Assembly: GCA_016839765.1 (NCBI GenBank)
Contig: JAEOTP010000007.1
Location: 1-64,000, forward strand
Source: Promethearchaeota archaeon
Lineage (GTDB): Archaea > Asgardarchaeota > Lokiarchaeia > Sigyniarchaeales > SOKP01
Reading direction: 5' to 3'
DNA length: 64,000 bases
Shown: positions 30,124-44,965 of the stretch, in pieces
How positions within the stretch are numbered: position 1 is the stretch's first letter
Layout: each line of letters opens with the position of its first letter
Program-made: the position numbers and the translations under genes
Notes under the pieces: generated by a model
Told to the model about the DNA's origin: nothing
The model's database searches: none
The model's input: only the letters and a program-made list of their open reading frames with translations

Positions 30124-31797
30124 ATGATTTCAAACGATTATCTTTTTACTGAAATTGGCATAGATTCGTGTGCTTTTTACGCACCTAGGTCATACCTCGA
30201 TCTGCATGAACTTGCATTAGAAAGGAAAGTAGATCCAGCAAAATATTCGAAAGGATTATTATGTAAAGAAATGAGGGTCGCTGAGATCGATGAAGACGTT
30301 ATTTCTCTTGGATTAAAAGCAGGATATAATGCCTTACAAAGGGGAGGCATACACCCTAAGAGTATAGATGCTTTATTTGTAGGAACTGAAACTGAAGTGT
30401 ATGCAGCTAAGAGCATCTCTAATATATTTGCCGAAATGTTAGAGATATCACCCAATTCATTAACACAGGATGTCTATAATGCTTGCGCTGGCGGTACGCT
30501 AACAATTCTTAATGCAATCGCTTTAATTGAAAAGGAGATTATAAACAAGGCTCTCATTATTAGCACAGACATTTCTTCATATCACCTTGGTTCTTCAGGT
30601 GAACCAACTCAAGGATCAGGCGCTATTGGGCTTGTTATCTCGAAAAACCCTCGAATAGCTAAATTTAGTAAGAGTTTTGGTAAGGTTTCAGGAAGTGTTA
30701 ATGATTTTTTCAGACCTCATAATGATAAAAATGCTAGAGCGTTTGGTCGATATTCCCAAGATACATATCTAAAATTCCAGCTTGGTGCTTACGATGATTT
30801 AATCAAAAGTATTGGTGATTTTCAAGCGGATTTTTATACATTTCATGCTCCCTATTCTAAATTACCTTTAAAATGCATGCAAGAAATAATACTAAAGCGT
30901 TGGATAAAACATCTACATGATCTACCTAAATTTGAGAGAAATAAGATTAAAACTTCCATAATTAAGAAACTTGATCATTTTTTACATGATGTAGCCGTAT
31001 TACCAGAATATATTTATTTAAAACTAAAAGAGAGAGGGTATTCTTCTTCGATTTTAGAGAAACTCTCATATTGGGTGAATACTAATGTAAAAGAAAGAGT
31101 ACTTCCTCAACTAAATGTACCAATGCACTTTGGTAATATGTACAATGCTTCATTATGGGCTCAAATTATATATCTTCTTGAGAATTATGCTCGTGCTAAT
31201 GATACAATATACTTTGGTTCTTATGGCTCAGGAGCTACCTGTATTTCTGGTCTTTTAAAAGTCCAAAATGAGTTTAATGAAATTACTCAAAAAAGCCCCC
31301 ATATTAATGATTTTATAAAAATAAAGACGAGAGTAAGCGTTCAAGAATATGAATTAATGAAAAATGGTAGTGCTAAAACACAGATATCATTGGGTCATAT
31401 AGTTGAGCATGAGCAAAATAATAATAGAGGTTTTACACTTCATTTCTGTGATGAGGGGTGCCTTATCCCAAATATAGAGGGTTTAGATCACTGTCCTAAA
31501 GGACATTCTGGCTATCATAAAAGATTTTTCCCTCTCTTTGCGAAGTTAGATAGTGATCCAATTTTTCGTTCAAATGATGATCTAAAATATTTGTGTGAAG
31601 ACCTGGTAAGAGTAGCTACTAATGCACGGAAAGGTGATTCTTTAGAATATGAAATAAGGAGATTTGAGAATAAAAACGAGCAAAATATTAACGCAAAAGG
31701 ATTATTAAATTGGATTCCTGTATATATAACTATACCTGAAGACCATTTAATAAAGAGAGGTAATCAAATCCAAGATATACCCATTCCTCTTGAGTGA
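30124..31797 (+). CDS. mvaS: Hydroxymethylglutaryl-CoA synthase with C-terminal Cys/His-containing extension
   Basis: VGTET (Glu), YNACAGG (Cys), FHAPYSK (His), GEPTQGSGA, GNMYNAS, SYGSGA. Confidence 0.9.
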   Translation: MISNDYLFTEIGIDSCAFYAPRSYLDLHELALERKVDPAKYSKGLLCKEMRVAEIDEDVISLGLKAGYNALQRGGIHPKSIDALFVGTETEVYAAKSISNIFAEMLEISPNSLTQDVYNACAGGTLTILNAIALIEKEIINKALIISTDISSYHLGSSGEPTQGSGAIGLVISKNPRIAKFSKSFGKVSGSVNDFFRPHNDKNARAFGRYSQDTYLKFQLGAYDDLIKSIGDFQADFYTFHAPYSKLPLKCMQEIILKRWIKHLHDLPKFERNKIKTSIIKKLDHFLHDVAVLPEYIYLKLKERGYSSSILEKLSYWVNTNVKERVLPQLNVPMHFGNMYNASLWAQIIYLLENYARANDTIYFGSYGSGATCISGLLKVQNEFNEITQKSPHINDFIKIKTRVSVQEYELMKNGSAKTQISLGHIVEHEQNNNRGFTLHFCDEGCLIPNIEGLDHCPKGHSGYHKRFFPLFAKLDSDPIFRSNDDLKYLCEDLVRVATNARKGDSLEYEIRRFENKNEQNINAKGLLNWIPVYITIPEDHLIKRGNQIQDIPIPLE

Positions 31798-31824
31798 ATC
31801 AAATCAATACCATTTTCAAAAATT

Positions 31825-32157
31825 CTAATCTTCGATATAATTATTTAAAAATTTTTCAACTTCATTATTAGAATTATTAATAAGTTTTTCAATATCTTCG
31901 TTTGTAGCATTATCGAGATGGATTCCTACAATAACTATCACTGTTTTCTTAATTTCCTTTGAAATCTTTTCTGCTAATGGTTTAGCGATTTCACCATCTT
32001 TATGACCATAAACACTAAGCAAGCTTGCACTTGAAGTTTGTTTATAAGGAATTGCTAGTGCAACAGCTCCGATATGAGGTTTATTTCCTCCCGTCAGCAT
32101 GAGAACTAAGTCATCTCCCATTTCAAAAGAATTTAAATCGACTTTCCATTTATTCAA
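31825..32157 (-). CDS. lpdD: LpdD-like prenylated-flavin chaperone
   Basis: LTGGNKPHIGAVALA, GHKD, GIHLDNAT motifs; overlaps the ubiX stop codon. Confidence 0.7.
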   Translation of the reverse strand: MNKWKVDLNSFEMGDDLVLMLTGGNKPHIGAVALAIPYKQTSSASLLSVYGHKDGEIAKPLAEKISKEIKKTVIVIVGIHLDNATNEDIEKLINNSNNEVEKFLNNYIED

Positions 32158-32701
32158 CTCCCCACCTCTTTATATCACTTTCTATACCAATTTGATCAAG
32201 AATCCGCCCTACTGTATATTCGATAAGTTCTTCAACAGATCTTGGTTTGATATAGTAAGAGGGAACTGGAGGGGCTATTACTACTCCTAATTTGGCGAGT
32301 TTGAGCATATTTTCAAGATGAATCGCGCTTAAAGGGCTTTCTCTTACTATTAAAATTAATTTTCTCTTTTCTTTAATATTGACATCAGCAGCTCTGGTAA
32401 TTAAGTTGTTAGCGTAACCATGAGCAATGGCTGCTAATGTTTTCATAGTACAAGGTACAATAATCATAGCATCAAGTTTATGGGAACCACTTGCAGGAGG
32501 AGCTTCTAAATCATTTACATCATAGGTTTTAGAAGCCAGATCAATAATATCTGAAATACTTAGTTCTGTTTCAGTATTTAATACTAATTCTGCAGCTTTT
32601 GATATGATTAATTCTGTTGAAATTTTTTTTTCTTTTAGGACCTTTAATAATTTAATAGCAATCAAAACCCCTGTAGCACCTGTAATTGCAACAAGAATCA
32701 T
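32150..32701 (-). CDS. ubiX: Flavin prenyltransferase UbiX
   Basis: VAITGATG, ASGS, PCTMKTL, RAADV, RESPL, HLENM. Confidence 0.95.
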   Translation of the reverse strand: MILVAITGATGVLIAIKLLKVLKEKKISTELIISKAAELVLNTETELSISDIIDLASKTYDVNDLEAPPASGSHKLDAMIIVPCTMKTLAAIAHGYANNLITRAADVNIKEKRKLILIVRESPLSAIHLENMLKLAKLGVVIAPPVPSYYIKPRSVEELIEYTVGRILDQIGIESDIKRWGVE

Positions 32702-32901
32702 TACTAATCACTAAAATTTTTACATTAACTTTTTCTTAATAATAATAGGTATTTAGGGATAATAATTATTTTATGTAAATATTTCAAAATTTATTTTCGC
32801 AGCAATTTCTTATAGAAAGAAAATAAATTCACATTAAAAAACTCTATAACTATTAAATATAATATATTATTTAAATTAGCAAAAAAATTGGTTGTGATAA
32901 A

Positions 32902-34182
32902 ATGAGTAAATTCCATTCTGATATCTCAGGTTTTTATAAACTATCCTTAAGAGAACGGCAAAAAACTCTTTCTGAGCTTGTTAATCTTGATGATGAAGAG
33001 GTCAAATTACTTAAAAATTTTGGATATTTCAAAGAGACACAAATTGATACTTTAATTGAAAACGTTGTTGGATCTTATCAATTACCCATTGGGATTGCGT
33101 GTAATTTTAGAATTAATAACAAGGATTACTTGATTCCTATGGTAATAGAGGAACCTTCCGTTGTTGCAGCAGCTTCAAACGCAGCAAGAATTGCTCGAAA
33201 ACATGGAGGATTTTTTTCAGAAAAAGTAGATTCAATTATGATATCTCAAATCCAAATAACCAATCTTACTGATGTTGAACAAGCTAAAAAAATTTTGTTA
33301 GAGAATAAAAAGAATATATTGAAGATTGCTAATGACCAAGATCCAATCTTAGTAAAACTTGGTGGAGGAGCATATGATTTTGAACTCAGAGATATTTATA
33401 CAAGAAAAGGTGTTATGTTAATAATTCATTTATTAGTCAATGTTTTAGATGCTATGGGTGCTAATGTAGTCAATACTATGGCTGAGTCTGTTACGCCTTA
33501 TATCGAGGAGTTATGTGAGGGTAAAGTTAATCTACGAATCGTATCAAATTTAGCCATTCATAGACTGGCAAAATGTAAAGCTAAATTTGACAAAGTCTTA
33601 TTAGGTGGAGAAGAAGTTGTAAAAGGTATAGTTAATGCATATGAATTTGCCCTTGCTGATCCATATCGTGCCACAACTCATAATAAAGGAATAATGAATG
33701 GAATAACTGCTCTAACTTTAGCAACTGGGAATGATACACGAGCTATAGAATCTGGAGCTCATGCTTATGCTTCATTAAAAGGTAATTATTCTCCATTGAC
33801 TAATTTTGAAGTTGATGCAGAAGGAAATTTAATAGGTGAAATTAAGATTCCACTTGCTTTAGGAATTATTGGCGGGATGACAAAATTACATCCAATGGCG
33901 CGATTAAATCTAAAAATTCTAGGTGTAAAATCAGCTGCAGAGTTATCTCAAGTTGCAGCTGCAGTAGGACTAGCTCAAAACGTTGCAGCATTAAGAGCTT
34001 TAGCGGCTGAAGGTATTCAGAGAGGTCATATGGCACTTCATTCTCGTAATATTGCAAAATTAGCTGGAGTGCCTGAGAATCTTATTGATCAAGTAGCAAA
34101 AAAATTAGTTAAAGATAACAAAATTAGGATTGATTATGCTAAAGAAATATTACAAAAAATTATCGATAAGAAAAACCTTTAG
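32902..34182 (+). CDS. mvaA: HMG-CoA reductase, class II
   Basis: IENVVG, PMVIEEPSVVAAAS, DAMGANVVNT, RATTHNKG, GIQRGHMALH. Confidence 0.95.
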   Translation: MSKFHSDISGFYKLSLRERQKTLSELVNLDDEEVKLLKNFGYFKETQIDTLIENVVGSYQLPIGIACNFRINNKDYLIPMVIEEPSVVAAASNAARIARKHGGFFSEKVDSIMISQIQITNLTDVEQAKKILLENKKNILKIANDQDPILVKLGGGAYDFELRDIYTRKGVMLIIHLLVNVLDAMGANVVNTMAESVTPYIEELCEGKVNLRIVSNLAIHRLAKCKAKFDKVLLGGEEVVKGIVNAYEFALADPYRATTHNKGIMNGITALTLATGNDTRAIESGAHAYASLKGNYSPLTNFEVDAEGNLIGEIKIPLALGIIGGMTKLHPMARLNLKILGVKSAAELSQVAAAVGLAQNVAALRALAAEGIQRGHMALHSRNIAKLAGVPENLIDQVAKKLVKDNKIRIDYAKEILQKIIDKKNL

Positions 34183-34263
34183 TTTTATAAAAAGTGGTTC
34201 ATAAACTTCTCTAGTTAAAACCTTTATTATTCGTAATACTATCATTATAAAAAATGATTTGAG

Positions 34264-35574
34264 TTGATAAATTTGGGATTTAGACAATATTTAAATAAAA
34301 TTGAAGAAAGCGGACTTCTTAAAAAAATAGATGTTGATGTTTCAAAGAAATTAGAGATTTCAGGTATTTTAAAAGAATTAGAGCCAACCCCCGTATTGTT
34401 TAATAATGTCAATGAATCTGAGTTCCGAGTAGTTGGCAATATGTTTTGTACTAAAAATGTAATTGCTTCATATTTCGGTGTGACTCCAGCAGATCTTATT
34501 CCTATGCTTTCTAAAGCGATTAAAGAAAGAAAAGAACCTGAGGTTATATCAAAGGCCCCCTGCCAAGAAGTAGTCGAATCAAATGTAGATTTAGATAAAG
34601 TTCCAATATTATTCCACTGTGAAAAGGATGGGGGGAATTATATAAGCTCAGCTGTAGTTGTCACTAAGGATCCTGATTATGGGCAAAATTTGGATTTTCA
34701 TAGAGCTATGCAGATTTCTAAAGAAAAATTTACGACTAGAATAGTAAAAGGACGTCACTTTTACAAATTTTTAGAAAAGAATGGTGAATTGGACGTAGCT
34801 TTTTGTATAGGGAATTCTCCAAATATTCTTATTGCTGGAGCTACTTCTGTTGATATTGGGGTAGATGAATTGACAATTGCTAATGCATTAGAACCAATTA
34901 AACTTGTTAAGGCAAATTCTGTTGATTTATTAATTCCTGCAGAAACTGAATTTGTTTTAGAGGGACGAGTATTTTCGGAAGAAAGATATGCTGAGGGACC
35001 TTTTGTTGATTTAACTGAAACATATGATGTAGTGAGAGATGAACCTGTTTTTGAAGTTAAGAAAATCACACATAGAAAAGATGCAATTTGGCAAGCATTA
35101 TTACCAGGTGCCCTAGAGCATAAGATTTTAATGGGAATGCCCCGTGAGCCAACCATTTTTAATAAAGTGAATGAATCAGGCGTAAAATGTCTAGATGTAA
35201 ACATTAATCCGGGAGGATGCTCATGGCTTCATGCCATTGTAAAAATTGACAAGTCTTCAGAAGAGGATGGTAAAAAAGCAATTTATGGCGCTTTTGCTGG
35301 TCATAGTAGCTGTAAACATGTCTTTGTTGTAGATAAAGATATTGATATCTATGACCCATTATCCGTGGAATGGGCAATGGCAACTCGTTTTCAAGGAGAT
35401 TTAAGAATGGTAATTAAAGATAAAGAACCGGGTAGTAGTTTAGATCCAAGTGCTGAACCAGGCACAAAAATGACTACGAAAATTGGCTTTGATTTCACAA
35501 AACCACTTGTTACTAAGGGTAAGAGTTTTGACTTAGCCAAATTTCCTAAAGTTGACATAGATAAATATCTTTAA
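34264..35574 (+). CDS. ubiD: UbiD-family decarboxylase, probable anhydromevalonate phosphate decarboxylase
   Basis: FHR, EGPFVD, VVDKDIDIYD, VEWAMATR, GSSLDPS; operon with the AcnX subunits and mvk. Confidence 0.88.
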   Translation: MINLGFRQYLNKIEESGLLKKIDVDVSKKLEISGILKELEPTPVLFNNVNESEFRVVGNMFCTKNVIASYFGVTPADLIPMLSKAIKERKEPEVISKAPCQEVVESNVDLDKVPILFHCEKDGGNYISSAVVVTKDPDYGQNLDFHRAMQISKEKFTTRIVKGRHFYKFLEKNGELDVAFCIGNSPNILIAGATSVDIGVDELTIANALEPIKLVKANSVDLLIPAETEFVLEGRVFSEERYAEGPFVDLTETYDVVRDEPVFEVKKITHRKDAIWQALLPGALEHKILMGMPREPTIFNKVNESGVKCLDVNINPGGCSWLHAIVKIDKSSEEDGKKAIYGAFAGHSSCKHVFVVDKDIDIYDPLSVEWAMATRFQGDLRMVIKDKEPGSSLDPSAEPGTKMTTKIGFDFTKPLVTKGKSFDLAKFPKVDIDKYL

Positions 35575-35592
35575 TTTTTGGAGGTAATGAAA

Positions 35593-36786
35593 ATGAAATT
35601 AACTTCTGAAGATCAAGATATGTTGGATGGTAAATATGGAAAGGCCACCCAAAAATCAATGGAAATTTTAACCATACTTGGTGAAATATTTGAAGCTGAA
35701 GATATGATTGATGTGGTGGGTGTTCAGATCGCAGGTGTGTCCTATGACAATCTTGGAGAAGCAGGATTGGAATTCTTAAGCGAGATGGCAGAAGATGGAA
35801 AGGTTAGAGTCTTAACTACATTAAATCCAGCAGGAATGGATCGTGAAAATTGGCGAGCATTGGGTATTGATGAAGAATTTGCTAAGAATCAAAATCGCGC
35901 TCTCGATGCTTTTGCTAAAATGGGGATAATTACAACCTGTTCTTGTACGCCTTACTTAATTGGTAATACGCCTCATTATGGTCAGCATCTTGCATGGGCT
36001 GAAAGTAGCGCGGTATGTTATGCTAATTCCGTTATTGGTGCTCGAAGTAATCGTGAAGGCGGCCCAAGTGCTCTAGCATCAGCTTTGACCGGAATAACAC
36101 CTAGATATGGGTATCATTTGGATAAAAATCGTCAAGGGGAAGTTTTAATTAAAGTTAACGCTCCAGTTAAAGGAACCGATGAATTTGGAGTTTTAGGAAA
36201 AATAATAGGTGATAAATTAGTTAAATTAGGCAAAAAAATACCATACATAACAGGTATCCCTTCTGCTTCAATTGAAGAACTCAAGTCATTTTGTGCTTCC
36301 GTTGCTACTTATGGTGGAACTGCACTATTCCACATGGAAAGAATAACTCCCGAATTCGATACATACCCTAAACCAAGCGATATCGTTTTTGACATTAATC
36401 AAAGCGATCTAGATAAAGCACGTGCTGAGCTTATAGATGATCATCTTGAAATTGATTTTGTAAGTATTGGCTGTCCTCACGCTTCAATACATGAAATTGC
36501 CACAATTGCAAAATTGTTAAAGGGAAAGAAAGTAAAGAAAGAATTTTGGATAACTACTGCTCGTCCAACCAAGAGAATTGCAGATGAAGTTGGTTATTCT
36601 AAAATAATTGAAATGGCAGGAGCAAAATTTGCAGCAGATACTTGCTGTGTTGTAGCCCCAATTAAAGGACGTTTCAAGGGTATAATGGTTGACTCCGCTA
36701 AAGCATGTTATTATGGTCGTGCAAAGAATAAATTTAAAGTAAAAATAGGAAAAATTGAAGAATGTGTTGAGGAGGCTACAAAATGA
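35593..36786 (+). CDS. Phosphomevalonate dehydratase large subunit (aconitase X, DUF521)
   Basis: QIAGVSY, TTLNP, CSCTPY, WAESSA, NREGGP, IGCPHAS, DTCCVV; GGAGGT SD at 35580-35585 favours ATG 35593 over TTG 35578. Confidence 0.9.
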   Translation: MKLTSEDQDMLDGKYGKATQKSMEILTILGEIFEAEDMIDVVGVQIAGVSYDNLGEAGLEFLSEMAEDGKVRVLTTLNPAGMDRENWRALGIDEEFAKNQNRALDAFAKMGIITTCSCTPYLIGNTPHYGQHLAWAESSAVCYANSVIGARSNREGGPSALASALTGITPRYGYHLDKNRQGEVLIKVNAPVKGTDEFGVLGKIIGDKLVKLGKKIPYITGIPSASIEELKSFCASVATYGGTALFHMERITPEFDTYPKPSDIVFDINQSDLDKARAELIDDHLEIDFVSIGCPHASIHEIATIAKLLKGKKVKKEFWITTARPTKRIADEVGYSKIIEMAGAKFAADTCCVVAPIKGRFKGIMVDSAKACYYGRAKNKFKVKIGKIEECVEEATK

Positions 36787-37175
36787 AGCTAAATGGAAGA
36801 AAAATATATAAGGGGAAAACTAAAGGAAAAACAATAGTCACCAAAGACGGAATTTCGTTTTATGGAGGCATAGATCCCGATACTGGAATAGTTGTGGAAG
36901 TTGGACATGAATTAGAAGGCCAATCTGTTTCTGGTAAAATATTAGTATTTCCAACTGGAAAAGGTTCTACTGTGGGGTCTTATACTATGTATCGAATGAA
37001 GAAGAATAATACAGCTCCTCTAGCTATAATTAACGAAAAGATCGATACGATCATTGCAGTGGGATGTATAATAAGCGAAATTCCATGCGTGGATATGATC
37101 GATATTAACTTAATAAAAAATGAACAGGAAGTTGTTGTCAATGGTTCTGAAGGAACTGTTGAAATTATAGATTAA
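36783..37175 (+). CDS. Phosphomevalonate dehydratase small subunit (aconitase X swivel domain, DUF126)
   Basis: ISFYGGIDPDTG, GKILVFPTGKGSTVGS; ATGA overlap with the large subunit. Confidence 0.92.
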   Translation: MKLNGRKIYKGKTKGKTIVTKDGISFYGGIDPDTGIVVEVGHELEGQSVSGKILVFPTGKGSTVGSYTMYRMKKNNTAPLAIINEKIDTIIAVGCIISEIPCVDMIDINLIKNEQEVVVNGSEGTVEIID

Positions 37176-37254
37176 TTAAAAAAAAAAAAATTTATATTTT
37201 TTTATAATAATTATTCAAGATAAATAACCAAATTATGTAGAGAAGGTGAAATTT

Positions 37255-38221
37255 TTGGGAACTGGAAAAGGGTATGGAAAGACTATTCTTTTTGGCGAAT
37301 TTTTCCTCCCAATTCGGGAATAAACGCTAACATTTTGTAGTTTATGGTCTTCCAGCAATCGCATCCGCTATCGGTTCTAAGACAATCGCTACTGTTAAAG
37401 CAGTCAATGGCGAAGGATGGACAGTAGATGACCAACGAATAGCAACACCAGGTTATAAGGATAAAAAATTTAAAGAGGCCCAACAAGCTATTATTAACGT
37501 TATTAAATACTTAAATATTGATATTATTAATAATAAACTTGAGATTACTTTTACAGGAGATTTAGTAGCAGCAAGTGGAGTGGGAGCTTCTGCAGCTCAA
37601 TGTACTTCTCTTGCTCGTGCACTCAGTGAGGAATTTAATCTTAATTTAGATGATGAAAAAATAAATGAAGCTGCTTATTCAGGTGAAATGGCATACCATG
37701 GAACTCCATCTGGCATCGATAATACCGCATCCACATATGGAGGATTAATTTGGTTTGTGAAAAGTTTAAGTGGAGGAAAAAACACCATTGATCGTCTCAA
37801 ATCTGCCGAAAAAATGCATTTAATTATAGCAAATACGGGCATAACTGCTTCTACTGCTGAGGTTGTTGCAGATGTTCGTAAATTGAGAGAAGAGAATCCA
37901 GAAAAGTTTAATAAAATATTCAATAAATATGAAAAAATCGCAAAAAATGCAAAAAATGCATTAATTAAAGGCGATAGGGATTCTGTTGGAAAATTAATGA
38001 ATCAAAATCATAAATTATTACAATTAATATCAGTTTCATCTGAGATTAATGACAAAATTGTCGATATTGCCTTAAATAATGGAGCAATAGGAGCAAAAAT
38101 GACTGGGACTGGTCGAGGGGGATTAGTAATAGCTTTAACCTTAGATGAAAATAATCAAAAAAGTGTTTCTGCTACTATCGAGAAGGAGGGTTTTTCAACA
38201 TGGAAAACAACTATTGGTTAA
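37255..38221 (+). CDS. mvk: Mevalonate kinase, interrupted: exon 1 37255-37299, exon 2 37331-38221 (311 aa if spliced)
   Basis: AGGTGA SD then TTG 37255; exon 1 MGTGKGYGKTILFGE joins exon 2 HFVVYGLPAIASAIG; GHMP motifs ASGVGASAA, HGTPSGIDN, GAKMTGTGRGG. Confidence 0.9.
37300..37330 (+). other. Putative 31-nt bulge-helix-bulge (BHB) pre-mRNA intron in mvk
   Basis: Central helix GGCG(37294-97)/CGCU(37325-28); 3-nt bulges AAU and AAC; cutting after the second bulge nucleotide gives GAA|CAT; internal UCCC/GGGA hairpin; in-frame TAA at 37321. Confidence 0.8.
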
Positions 38222-38290
38222 ATTATTATGTTTTAAATCTAAATCAAAATTACTTAAATCATTTATTTCATTTTTAGATGGGTATTAGAT

Positions 38291-40183
38291 GTGAAGAGAG
38301 ACAATACAATATACTTATTAAAATTAGGCGGTAGTTTACTAACTGATAAAAACGAACCTTCTTCATTAAGGGAAGATGTTATAAACAGAGCTATTGAACA
38401 GATTATAGAAAGTAATAAAAGAGTTGTTTTGATTCATGGCGGAGGTTCATTTGGTCACCCTATTGCAAAAAAATATCAATTATTTAAAGGATTAAACACA
38501 TCTATTAAAAATCAAGTATTAGGGCTTTCTAAAACTCATGAAATGATGAATCAACTTAATACAATAATAATAAACAAATTTTTAAAGAAGAATTACCCAG
38601 TTTTATCTATTTCACCTTCAGCAATATTTATTAAAAGATCTCAACAGTTTATACTTAATTCCATTGATCCAATTGAAATTTCATTGAAATTAGGGGTTTT
38701 ACCAATCCTCTATGGAGATATCATCCTAGAAAAAGATGGTTCCTTCTCAATAATATCTGGAGATGACATAATTTTAGAATTATGTAAGACCTTGAAGAAT
38801 TTTGAAATTGTTAAGGTTATTTTTGCTATTGAGAAAGACGGGATTTATGTAAAAGACGGAGATAGTATTGAATTTGCTTCACAAATTAATTTTGATGAAT
38901 TAAAAAGTGTAGAATTAGCTGATTTAGAGCATAAAATAGATGTGACCGGAGGAATTGGAAGAAAATTTGAAATTATAAAACAAATTGCTGAATTAAATAT
39001 TCCTGTTCAAGTTATTAATGGCTTAAAAAAAAATTATATCTTAAAATCTTTAAAAAACCAAAAGCTAGATTGCACAAATATTAGCTTATCTAAGGAAAAA
39101 GATGATATTCAAGCAATTCATACCAGAAAATTAGAACATTTAACAATCCCATTAGATTATAATGTACAATCCACTAAAAATTATTTTGACGAAATTATAT
39201 TAATACATCATCCATTACCTGAAATAGAATTACATGATGTTGAATTAGGAACCCAATTTTTCAATAAAAGTGTTTCCGCTCCTATTTGTATTGCAGCTAT
39301 AACTGGTGGCCATCCAATATCTAAAAAAATTAATAAAATATTAGCAGAAGCTGCTGAATCAGAAAATATAATAATGAGTGTTGGAAGTCAACGTATAGCA
39401 TTAGAGGATCAAACCGCTGTTGAATCCTTTCAAATCGTTCGAGAATGCGCTCCAAATATTCCTATTATTGGAAATCTTGGAATAGGACAAATAAGTTCTA
39501 ATGATTTTCAATTAGAAGAATTTCAAAAATGCATTGAAATGATAAATGCTGATATTATGGCAATTCATTTCAATGCTCTCCATGAATTAGTACAAAAAGA
39601 TGGTAATATTTATTATACAGCTTTTTCTGATAACTTTAAAACAGTAAGGGAAAGGTTTAAGATTCCCATAATTGCTAAAGAAGTTGGAACAGGCTTTAAC
39701 CGTGATCTAGCCTTACAGCTTGACCTTTTGGGTTTTGATGGATTTGACGTAGGAGGAATGGGAGGCACAAATTTTACTAGTATAGAATCAATTAGAGATA
39801 ATGATAATAATGAAAATTATACAAGAAAACTTGCTGATACACTAAAAAATTGGGGGATACCAACTCCAATTAGTATTTTAAATGTCAGAAGTACATCAAA
39901 AAAGCCTATCATTGCAACGGGAGGGTTAAGGACGGGACTTGATATTGCAAAAAGTATAGTTTTAGGAGCGGATATAGGAGGTTTTGCCTACAAATTCCTT
40001 AAATCTGCTTGGAAAGATTATAAACAAGAAACAATAACCAATACAATAAATGAAATTCGAACATTAAAACACGAATTACTGTCAGTAATGTGGTTATTAA
40101 ATATAGATAAAATTGAAAATCTTAAAAGTAAAAGAGAAAAAAGTATCCTCTTAGGAGATATGTATAAATGGGCTAACCAATAA
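38291..40183 (+). CDS. fni: Fusion of isopentenyl phosphate kinase and type 2 isopentenyl-diphosphate isomerase
   Basis: N-half LKLGGSLLTDK, HGGGSFGH, ISGD, DVTGGI (IPK); C-half RKLEHL, AITGG, VGSQR, AKEVGTG, GGTNF, WGIPT, TGGLRTG (IDI-2). Confidence 0.92.
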   Translation: MKRDNTIYLLKLGGSLLTDKNEPSSLREDVINRAIEQIIESNKRVVLIHGGGSFGHPIAKKYQLFKGLNTSIKNQVLGLSKTHEMMNQLNTIIINKFLKKNYPVLSISPSAIFIKRSQQFILNSIDPIEISLKLGVLPILYGDIILEKDGSFSIISGDDIILELCKTLKNFEIVKVIFAIEKDGIYVKDGDSIEFASQINFDELKSVELADLEHKIDVTGGIGRKFEIIKQIAELNIPVQVINGLKKNYILKSLKNQKLDCTNISLSKEKDDIQAIHTRKLEHLTIPLDYNVQSTKNYFDEIILIHHPLPEIELHDVELGTQFFNKSVSAPICIAAITGGHPISKKINKILAEAAESENIIMSVGSQRIALEDQTAVESFQIVRECAPNIPIIGNLGIGQISSNDFQLEEFQKCIEMINADIMAIHFNALHELVQKDGNIYYTAFSDNFKTVRERFKIPIIAKEVGTGFNRDLALQLDLLGFDGFDVGGMGGTNFTSIESIRDNDNNENYTRKLADTLKNWGIPTPISILNVRSTSKKPIIATGGLRTGLDIAKSIVLGADIGGFAYKFLKSAWKDYKQETITNTINEIRTLKHELLSVMWLLNIDKIENLKSKREKSILLGDMYKWANQ

Positions 40184-42319: not shown

Positions 42320-43387
42320 CTAATAATTCCTATTCATCACAAATTTTAAGAGACTTTCAAAAAATTCTGTTTCTGACGGATCTATTACTTTCTTTAGACC
42401 ATCTAGAGCATTTTTTGCTTTATCAAAATAATTTCTTGATAATTCCTTGCACGAATCAACTACTTCAGCTTCTAAAAACAAATCCTTGACTTTTTGAACA
42501 TCATTTTTTGCCATGTTTTGATTATGTATCAAATCATTAAGATGCTTTTTCTTACTATCATCCAATTTCTCATAAGCTTCTATTAATAAACAAGTCTTTT
42601 TACCTTCTCTTATATCTCCATCAGTTGGTTTTCCTGTTACTTTTTCATCCCCAAAAGTACCTAGGATGTCATCTATAATTTGAAAAACTATACCTAAATT
42701 AATGCCATAACTAGATAAGAGTTTAACGTTAGCTTTATTTACATTGGCATAATTTGCACCAATTAATAATGATTTTTCGATTAATGCGCCCGTTTTTAAG
42801 GAAATCATGTTAATATAGTCATTAATTGTTAATTCTTCCTTATTTACCATATCCATTTCAATTAAAACACCATTCGCAATTTCAATAAAAGCTTGCTCAT
42901 ACAAGGAAACCGCTTTTAAATTTAAATCTGTAGCAAAATCATTATAAAAATACGCTTCTAAACCTAAGAAAAACGCTGTATCACCACCTATTATTCCTAT
43001 GGAATTACCAAAATCTAACGCATCCATCTTTTGTAGACTGTACTTCTTGTGATAATTCTGAAATCTATAATGAAAAGCAGGATTTCCTCTTCTAAAATTA
43101 TCTTTATCTATAATATCGTCGTGTACTAATGAGGCATTGTGAAGAAATTCGATTCCAACACTTGGAATTAAAATTCTTTCATCTTTTTCTTTCTTAAATG
43201 CGTTATAGGCAGCTATAGTGAGGATTGGGCGAATCCTTTTACCCCCACTGAGAAAATAATCTTGAAGTTCTGAATAATAACTAATTAAAAAATCATCTTT
43301 TATATTTTTTAACTTTCTTTCAAAAAGATTATTAATTTCTTCGTTAATCTTTGGTCTATAAAGCCCTAAATAATTTAAAAATTTAAT
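42320..43387 (-). CDS. idsA: trans-polyprenyl diphosphate synthase (GGPP/GFPP synthase family), 355 aa, probable ATT start
   Basis: Frame is open 120 codons upstream of the 43027 call and contains GGKRIRP, HNASLVHDDIID and RRG; KTG, FQIIDDILG and DIREGKKT lie downstream; no in-frame ATG/GTG/TTG upstream, ATT 43387 follows TAGTGA. Confidence 0.88.
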   Translation of the reverse strand: MKFLNYLGLYRPKINEEINNLFERKLKNIKDDFLISYYSELQDYFLSGGKRIRPILTIAAYNAFKKEKDERILIPSVGIEFLHNASLVHDDIIDKDNFRRGNPAFHYRFQNYHKKYSLQKMDALDFGNSIGIIGGDTAFFLGLEAYFYNDFATDLNLKAVSLYEQAFIEIANGVLIEMDMVNKEELTINDYINMISLKTGALIEKSLLIGANYANVNKANVKLLSSYGINLGIVFQIIDDILGTFGDEKVTGKPTDGDIREGKKTCLLIEAYEKLDDSKKKHLNDLIHNQNMAKNDVQKVKDLFLEAEVVDSCKELSRNYFDKAKNALDGLKKVIDPSETEFFESLLKFVMNRNY

Positions 43388-43738: not shown

Positions 43739-44965
43739 ATGAGATTAACTGAGGTTATCCATGTAAAGCATTCATTAGAATTATCAAAAGTATGTCATTT
43801 AGCTAAGAACCTTTATAATTTAGCTAATTGGTATATAAGACAGGATTTCTTTAATCTTAATAATGTTTTAACCTATTATGATTTAGACTTTATTTTGAAA
43901 CATACACAAGCTTATCAGAATCTTCCCTCTCAAACTTCACAGCAAATTCTCAAATATGTGAATAGAAACTGGAAATCTTATTTTAGAGCGATAAAAGAAT
44001 ATAACCGAGATAACAAGAAGTTTAAGCAAAAACCCAGAATCCCCAGTTACAAAAAGAAAAGTGGAGAATCTATTGTAGTTTTTACCAATCAACAATGCCG
44101 GATAAAAAAAGGATATTTACATTTTCCAAAAAGGGTTAATCTTGAATCAATTAAAATTAGAATTAAAAATAAATTAAAGGAAGTAAGGATAATCCCTTTA
44201 GGAGTAAAATATAAAATTGAAACGATATATGAAAAAGAAGAGAAGGAGTTAGGATTAGATAAAGAGTATATTTTAAGCATTGATTTAGGGTTGAATAATC
44301 TCATAACTGCAGAAAATAATAGGTGTACCCCATTTATTATAAAAGGTGGGATGATAAAATCTATAAATCAATATTATAACAAACAATTGGCATATTTTAG
44401 AAGTATTGAAAATAAGAAGGGAAATTTTAGTGATACAAAAAGAATTCAAAAACTGCATTTAACTCGAAACAATAAACTTACTACATTGTTTCATCGAATT
44501 TCCAAAAATGTAATTAAGTATTGTATTCAAAATAACATTGGAACAATTTTAATAGGATACAATAACGGATGGAAGCAGAACATTAGTTTTGGAAAAAAAA
44601 AAAATCAGAAATTTATTCAAATTCCTTTCTTGAAATTAGTAAAACAAATTGAATATAAAAGTAAATTGAAAGGGATTCAAGTTAAGCGAGTTGAAGAATC
44701 TTACACTTCCAAATGCTCTTTCTTAGACAAAGAATCTATTGAAAAACATGAAAAGTATGGAGGAAAAAGAATTTCCAGAGGCTTGTTTAAAACTTCTAAA
44801 GGTATTCTAATCAATGCCGATGTGAATGGGGCATATAATATCATGAAAAAAGCATTCCCAAATGCCGTTTCGGTGGATGGGATAGAGGCATTCGGACTAA
44901 TGCCACAAATAATTCAACAACACATCGCTGATAAGATTATTTGCAATAAAATGGGTATAGTATAA
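43739..44965 (+). CDS. tnpB: IS200/IS605-family RNA-guided endonuclease TnpB (solo, IS1341-like)
   Basis: AKNLYN, LPSQTSQQ, RuvC-I SIDLGLNNL, EESYTSKCSFLD, RuvC-III NADVNGAYNI; no tnpA adjacent. Confidence 0.92.
   Translation: MRLTEVIHVKHSLELSKVCHLAKNLYNLANWYIRQDFFNLNNVLTYYDLDFILKHTQAYQNLPSQTSQQILKYVNRNWKSYFRAIKEYNRDNKKFKQKPRIPSYKKKSGESIVVFTNQQCRIKKGYLHFPKRVNLESIKIRIKNKLKEVRIIPLGVKYKIETIYEKEEKELGLDKEYILSIDLGLNNLITAENNRCTPFIIKGGMIKSINQYYNKQLAYFRSIENKKGNFSDTKRIQKLHLTRNNKLTTLFHRISKNVIKYCIQNNIGTILIGYNNGWKQNISFGKKKNQKFIQIPFLKLVKQIEYKSKLKGIQVKRVEESYTSKCSFLDKESIEKHEKYGGKRISRGLFKTSKGILINADVNGAYNIMKKAFPNAVSVDGIEAFGLMPQIIQQHIADKIICNKMGIV
44887..44917 (+). mobile_element. Possible IS200/IS605 right end / omega-RNA 3' hairpin
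   Basis: GGCATT-cggact-AATGCC hairpin (44887-44904) followed by TCAA (44914-44917) within the tnpB 3' end. Confidence 0.35.

Follow-up and report, generated by a model that had tools for sequence, protein, structure and literature searches.

The locus examined here raises the question of how a functional mevalonate kinase could be produced from a gene (mvk) whose catalytic motif is interrupted. In the window, that is, the whole 64,000-nt stretch of a lokiarchaeial metagenome-assembled genome that was analysed, a 31-nt insert at 37300-37330 (+) splits the FGE|H of the mevalonate kinase GHMP motif 1. Without removal of the insert, translation from the TTG at 37255 stops after 22 aa, and the frame of exon 2 is closed by the TAA at 37328-30, directly ahead of the His; when the insert is removed, a 311-aa product with no internal stop is obtained. 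These coordinates and lengths agree with those of an earlier note on this DNA, which proposed that the insert represents a bulge-helix-bulge (BHB) mRNA intron, cut by the tRNA-splicing endonuclease EndA and ligated by RtcB. The note also held that the insert is not a duplication of its flanks; terminal repeats are absent and no near copy was found elsewhere in the genome. The features discussed below are collected in Table 1.

Table 1. Features of the mvk locus (window coordinates) and inserts on other contigs of the same genome.
Feature	Position	Strand	Remarks
Archaeal mevalonate-pathway cluster around mvk	30124..40183		HMG-CoA synthase, UbiX-like, HMG-CoA reductase, UbiD-like, AcnX large and small, mvk, isopentenyl-phosphate kinase/IDI-2 fusion
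Shine-Dalgarno-like AGGTGA	37244..37249	+	Upstream of the TTG start, which aligns with ATG starts in close relatives
mvk alternative start, in-frame GTG	37246	+	Would give 314 aa
mvk exon 1	37255..37299	+	15 codons, ends FGE; Lys9 and Glu15 of GHMP motif 1; frame conserved among carriers
Distal exon-exon helix	37280..37343	+	37280-86 with 37337-43; equally good in intronless alleles
Central helix, 5' strand GGCG (exon 1)	37294..37297	+	Followed by bulge AA^U, 37298-37300
mvk insert, candidate BHB-type (relaxed HBh') mRNA intron	37300..37330	+	31 nt; both relevant frames closed by stops
Intron hairpin (h' helix and loop)	37301..37324	+	Not perfect here; relatives have as many as 9 bp
Central helix, 3' strand CGCU (intron)	37325..37328	+	Followed by AA^C, 37329-37331
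mvk exon 2	37331..38221	+	296 codons and stop, starts at His16; joined product TIGR00549 219 bits; dN/dS 0.11-0.17
EF-1alpha insert, splits P-loop	contig C57:103567	+	33 nt; same BHB-like geometry
Pfk insert, splits GGDD	contig C22:40418	-	30 nt; same BHB-like geometry
DnaG insert, splits conserved motif	contig C17:32113	-	37 nt; same BHB-like geometry
PurA-like insert, splits WGDEGKGK	contig C6:33814	+	30 nt; same BHB-like geometry
Scan hit in a gene without name	contig C56:5347	-	30 nt; good BHB geometry, chance possible

The interrupted gene and its genomic setting

No gene but mvk passes the family cut-off for mevalonate kinase in this 96% complete genome (two other GHMP hits resemble HddA-type and pantoate-type kinases), and the mevalonate cluster that holds it is intact. 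The joined product scores 219 bits against TIGR00549, over the curated cut-off, versus 163 for exon 2 alone, and only in the joined product is motif 1 (K...FGEH) complete. Lys9 and Glu15 of exon 1 are the equivalents of the catalytic Lys18 and Glu24 of Leishmania MK; the roles of the motif 1 residues are described in PMC1851959 and PMC10910542. A protein devoid of exon 1 is unlikely to be a functional kinase. Using an intronless relative (P0015) as query, the nearest solved structure is Leishmania major MK (E 3e-73), while the archaeal and bacterial MKs give E 6e-33 or weaker.

Several other observations concern the same region. The HMG-CoA synthase-like protein (30124-31797, 557 aa) carries a long C-terminal extension, and the gene at 38291-40183 encodes a 630-aa fusion of isopentenyl-phosphate kinase with a type 2 IPP isomerase-like domain. 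The polyprenyl (GGPP-type) synthase gene at 42320-43387 (-) has no ATG, GTG or TTG start. We rejected the idea that this is a split gene, its appearance being explained by an ATT start at 43387, opposite which two relatives have ATG and two others ATC in the alignment. An IS605 TnpB/Cas12f-like gene (43739-44965) adjoins the isoprenoid cluster. As for mvk itself, apparent ACG or CTG starts directly after the upstream stop are found in alleles L007, L008, L010, L011, L013, L052, L062, L048, L057 and L018; the ACG starts occur in carriers of the insert and in two intronless alleles, and non-canonical starts seem common in the lineage.

Neither the tRNA introns nor any other locus of this genome proved similar to the insert, and an Rfam search gave no match. 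At 31 nt and with no Rfam match, it has neither the ribozyme core of a group I or II self-splicing intron nor the encoded mobility protein of a homing-endonuclease intron.

Same-site inserts in related alleles

The comparison was based on 55 distinct mvk alleles of related genomes (>60% identity). Exactly the same site is occupied by an insert in 27 of them, while the remaining 28 are cleanly joined. The insert is present in all 8 genomes of the clade to which the source genome belongs. A pattern scan, which is biased to carrier-type flanks, found the same-site insert in 58 JGI metagenome contigs as well. Altogether these amount to 57 distinct inserts with lengths of 28, 30 or 31 nt, and in every carrier the insert puts a stop in the frame of exon 1. 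Exon 2 of carriers has a dN/dS of 0.11-0.17, like that of intronless pairs, and most of the variation in exon 1 falls on third codon positions; judging from these substitution patterns, both exons are under purifying selection.

These data bear on the reality of the insert. The source is an uncultured organism known from a metagenome-assembled genome, for which an assembly artefact or a pseudogene might be suspected. However, a contig of an independent study covers 37089-37497 with the insert in place and a sole gap at 37180, and no 31-nt deletion was seen in any aligned DNA run compared with the site. An artefact is hard to reconcile also with the presence of the insert throughout the clade and with its 57 sequence variants, and decay of the gene with the selection acting on both exons and with the failure to find a second mvk in the genome. 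The probability of either origin is negligible.

Could the cell dispense with splicing? One possibility is a 315-aa protein with a MERPFFLA-type N-terminus, translated from an out-of-frame ATG of exon 1 through the insert, or else a truncated protein, and these are indeed the forms in which many carriers appear in public annotation. The frame is open from the ATG in 16 of 29 carriers and its N-terminus is present in 31 of the best 120 database hits. On the other hand, a TAA closes it in the source genome and 7 of the 29 carriers, 6 more have no ATG, and amino-acid identity is 68% in that frame vs 97% in the true one; the product would be devoid of Lys9 and Glu15, and the ATG comes about as a side effect of the Tyr-Gly codons. 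We hold this reading to be very improbable. The FGEH motif is missing from 47 of the best 120 database hits, P0001-P0010 among them, and a quarter of the closest database proteins bear a wrong-frame N-terminus, which amounts to a systematic annotation error.

Translational recoding was also considered. The bypass of T4 gene 60 involves a hairpin with a stop codon, and the mvk insert, being a hairpin with a stop codon, is superficially similar, so that a frameshift or a ribosomal hop might carry the ribosome across. Against this, stops close both frames in the source genome, lengths of 28, 30 and 31 nt call for different frame changes, and a codon at the end of the insert matching the take-off Glu codon occurs in none of the 57 inserts. 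Recoding is accordingly given very little credence here.

Shape of the junctions and splicing enzymes

The folding of the junctions was analysed with ViennaRNA. The 4-bp central helix between GGCG of exon 1 and CGCU of the intron, already described in the earlier note, is predicted with pair probabilities of 0.97-0.99, and a 4-bp helix in register with a 3-bp intron stem is found in only 0.09% of random genomic 31-mers. Other elements of the fold proposed in the note fared less well. The pair U37293-A37332 has probability 0, so that the 3' cut would lie in an internal loop and not in the closed 3-nt bulge that had been claimed; the UUU/AAA intron stem has p of about 0.05; and the distal exon-exon stem is present but cannot be regarded as intron-specific, because intronless alleles have one of equal quality. 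Constraining the fold to the BHB shape costs 3.2 kcal/mol relative to the minimum in this genome. The overall folding energy (z -1.45, not significant) is uninformative. With an exon-side helix of 1 bp, the motif departs from the strict canonical hBHBh' (two closed 3-nt bulges, helices of at least 2 bp on both sides) and is of the relaxed HBh' type, comprising an exon/intron central helix, junctions two bases 3' of its strands and an intron-side helix.

The comparison of the inserts points to the same central helix. Its three inner pairs are kept in 57 of 57 distinct inserts, and in 4 alleles both sides have changed in a compensatory manner, from GGCG/CGCU to GGUG/CACU; the alignment of orthologues, which the earlier note had recommended, thus yielded both same-site inserts and compensatory changes. 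The outer pair is G.A in 31 of the 57. In the named structure 87% of cells pair vs 40-48% in slid registers, although covariation exceeds that of shuffled sets only modestly (6-71 of 500) and related alleles do not count as independent. Among the cut placements compared, the BHB rule alone yields FGE|H in 57 of 57 inserts; cuts shifted by one or two bases give it in 11 of 57 and otherwise change Glu15. Among the genome alleles, the flanking codons for Phe13 (TTT in 27/27 carriers vs 10/28 intronless alleles) and Gly14 (GGY in 27/27 vs 12/28) are biased in carriers; JGI codon counts were not used, since these codons were fixed by the search pattern. This bias may in part reflect linkage on recombination tracts (see below) and not RNA structure.

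Two EndA paralogues, forming an (alpha-beta)2-type enzyme, and one RtcB are encoded in the genome. The EndA genes are on contigs C72 and C82, that of RtcB on C25. One of the paralogues matches the catalytic subunit of Aeropyrum, and the match takes in the loop linked with broad specificity. The (alpha-beta)2 EndA cuts relaxed motifs and has been reported for Asgard archaea (PMC5829648). In addition, ARAGORN identified only 19 tRNAs in this 96% complete genome, 11 of them called with introns, and probably many of its tRNA genes are hidden by non-canonical introns.

We consider it highly likely that the mvk insert is an mRNA intron of the cbf5 kind, spliced by EndA and RtcB. In the mechanism that we propose, GGCG of exon 1 would pair with CGCU of the intron, which would close into a hairpin; the (alpha-beta)2 endonuclease, tolerant of relaxed motifs, would cut after A37299 and after A37330; and RtcB would join GAA to CAU, giving the 311-aa mevalonate kinase. 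All of its steps, from transcription to cleavage and ligation, are predicted, as is the exact position of the cuts. Very probably the mvk mRNA must be cut and rejoined, as the only mvk found is broken in its active-site motif by an insert resembling a tRNA intron. The splicing proposed in the earlier note thus gains comparative support from the 57 inserts, the helix register, the stops, selection, the single mvk and the enzymes, while its motif turns out to be a relaxed one.

Since the motif is relaxed and thermodynamically marginal, its BHB-like shape might be incidental and the insert removed by another nuclease at the RNA level, or by excision from DNA. Yet both junctions lie two bases 3' of the helix strands, according to the EndA rule, in mvk and in four other genes (see below), and neither terminal repeats nor copies of the insert are present. 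Furthermore, no DNA allele with a precise deletion and carrier-type flanks was found among the alleles or JGI contigs. An exact search of the latter for the joined junction with such flanks gave no hit, and a looser pattern recovered four contigs free of the intron, each of which differs from every carrier by 40% or more. Likewise, the protein database searches returned no intron-free protein identical to a carrier, and the nearest carrier/intron-free protein pairs are mosaic DNA alleles. Removal by another route is therefore considered improbable, and EndA/RtcB splicing is the reading retained below.

Distribution of the proposed intron, other split genes and known systems

The distribution of the intron among relatives is patchy. 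A tree built from the distal part of exon 2 requires 12 changes of intron status, of which strong branches force at least 10; when the tree is built from the 90 exon bases nearest the site, 3 changes suffice, compared with 13-14 in three control windows of equal length, although trees as short as these are poorly resolved. Among allele pairs less than 10% apart distally, divergence around the site is 12-29% in pairs of mixed status (11 pairs, corresponding to about five contrasts that are independent) and 0-12% in same-status pairs (medians of 3% for carrier-carrier and 5% for intronless-intronless pairs). Allele L062, a carrier, sits within a group of intronless kin and has a flank resembling that of distant carriers, an apparent gain, and L091 and L089 show the reverse pattern, apparent losses; several of the mosaic alleles are short metagenome contigs and possibly chimeric, while the L062 set derives from genome contigs of 23-385 kb. 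The patchy distribution would be best explained by the exchange of short homologous recombination tracts with an intron-bearing or an intron-free 5' end. Loss mediated by cDNA is argued against, because it would leave carrier-type flanks, and a homing-like bias favouring the intron is unsupported, given that tracts apparently move in both directions. Five intronless mvk genes in records titled Bathyarchaeia or Nitrosopumilales (L042, L050, L053, L059 and L067) are nested in the Loki clade, due either to transfer or to mislabelled records.

Inserts of similar geometry split conserved motifs of other genes of the genome (Table 1), one of which, with its WGDEGKGK motif, we take to be PurA-like; the evidence for the EF-1alpha, Pfk, DnaG and PurA-like inserts is at the level of sequence. 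A relaxed genome-wide BHB scan gave 5 hits vs 0-2 in controls, a lower bound and partly circular, since the scan was tuned on three known cases. A strict scan matched its controls (4 vs 1-8) and was too strict.

In the papers found, cbf5 is the only case of splicing inside an archaeal coding sequence, the introns of other genes being predicted and unconfirmed (PMC2738675). The BHB intron of the cbf5 pre-mRNA is found both in the Sulfolobales and in the Desulfurococcales (Watanabe 2002; Yokobori 2009, PMC2738675). The mvk and cbf5 cases share a short insert in a catalytic motif, relaxed BHB junctions, a hetero-oligomeric EndA and patchy gain and loss. They differ in gene and phylum, and also in that the splicing of cbf5 has been demonstrated with cDNA and by cleavage in vitro, that of mvk being predicted; moreover, the mvk genome has at least 5 genes with inserts, and its mosaic flanks point to exchange by recombination. 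The earlier note regarded cbf5 as the only known BHB intron of an archaeal protein gene; this needs amending, as the 5' UTR intron of Haloferax HVO_1309 is a published mRNA substrate of the splicing endonuclease (PMC7714728), a property inferred for mvk. However, the HVO_1309 intron, of 46 nt, is outside the coding sequence, while removal of the mvk insert is needed for the protein (Schwarz 2020, PMC7714728).

Asgard archaea are known to have non-canonical introns in tRNA genes (PMC11291895; bioRxiv 10.64898/2026.10.13.758758), and relaxed HBh'/BHL motifs have also been described (PMC5829648), with the same type of motif, enzyme architecture and repeated gains as in mvk. These intron papers cover tRNA genes only, whereas mvk is a protein gene, and the terms mRNA, cbf5 and recombination are absent from the 2026 preprint (bioRxiv 10.64898/2026.10.13.758758).

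What is new, in the literature searched, is a predicted coding-sequence mRNA intron in a central lipid-precursor enzyme, such introns having been confirmed earlier for cbf5 only. Outside Archaea, a parallel is provided by XBP1/HAC1, whose non-spliceosomal mRNA intron is cut by IRE1 at two hairpin loops under stress regulation and whose exons are joined by a tRNA ligase (RtcB in animals). Like it, the mvk intron is short and frame-shifting, and would be cut out by a nuclease and its exons joined by a tRNA ligase; the XBP1/HAC1 system differs in its regulation by stress and in its nuclease, which in mvk would be EndA. The mvk intron thus offers a testable parallel to XBP1-type splicing and bears on how introns first spread through genes.

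On balance, we think it somewhat more likely than not that Lokiarchaeia routinely splice several housekeeping mRNAs (here mvk, EF-1alpha, pfk, dnaG and purA-like) with the tRNA machinery, and that protein-less mini-introns are gained and lost from species to species by way of recombination tracts some 50-250 bp long and not by cDNA-mediated loss. The mosaic flanks suggest a concrete route of intron gain and loss, named as an open problem in the 2026 preprint on Asgard tRNAs. If true, mRNA splicing by EndA and RtcB would be a routine and probably essential step in the closest prokaryotic relatives of eukaryotes.
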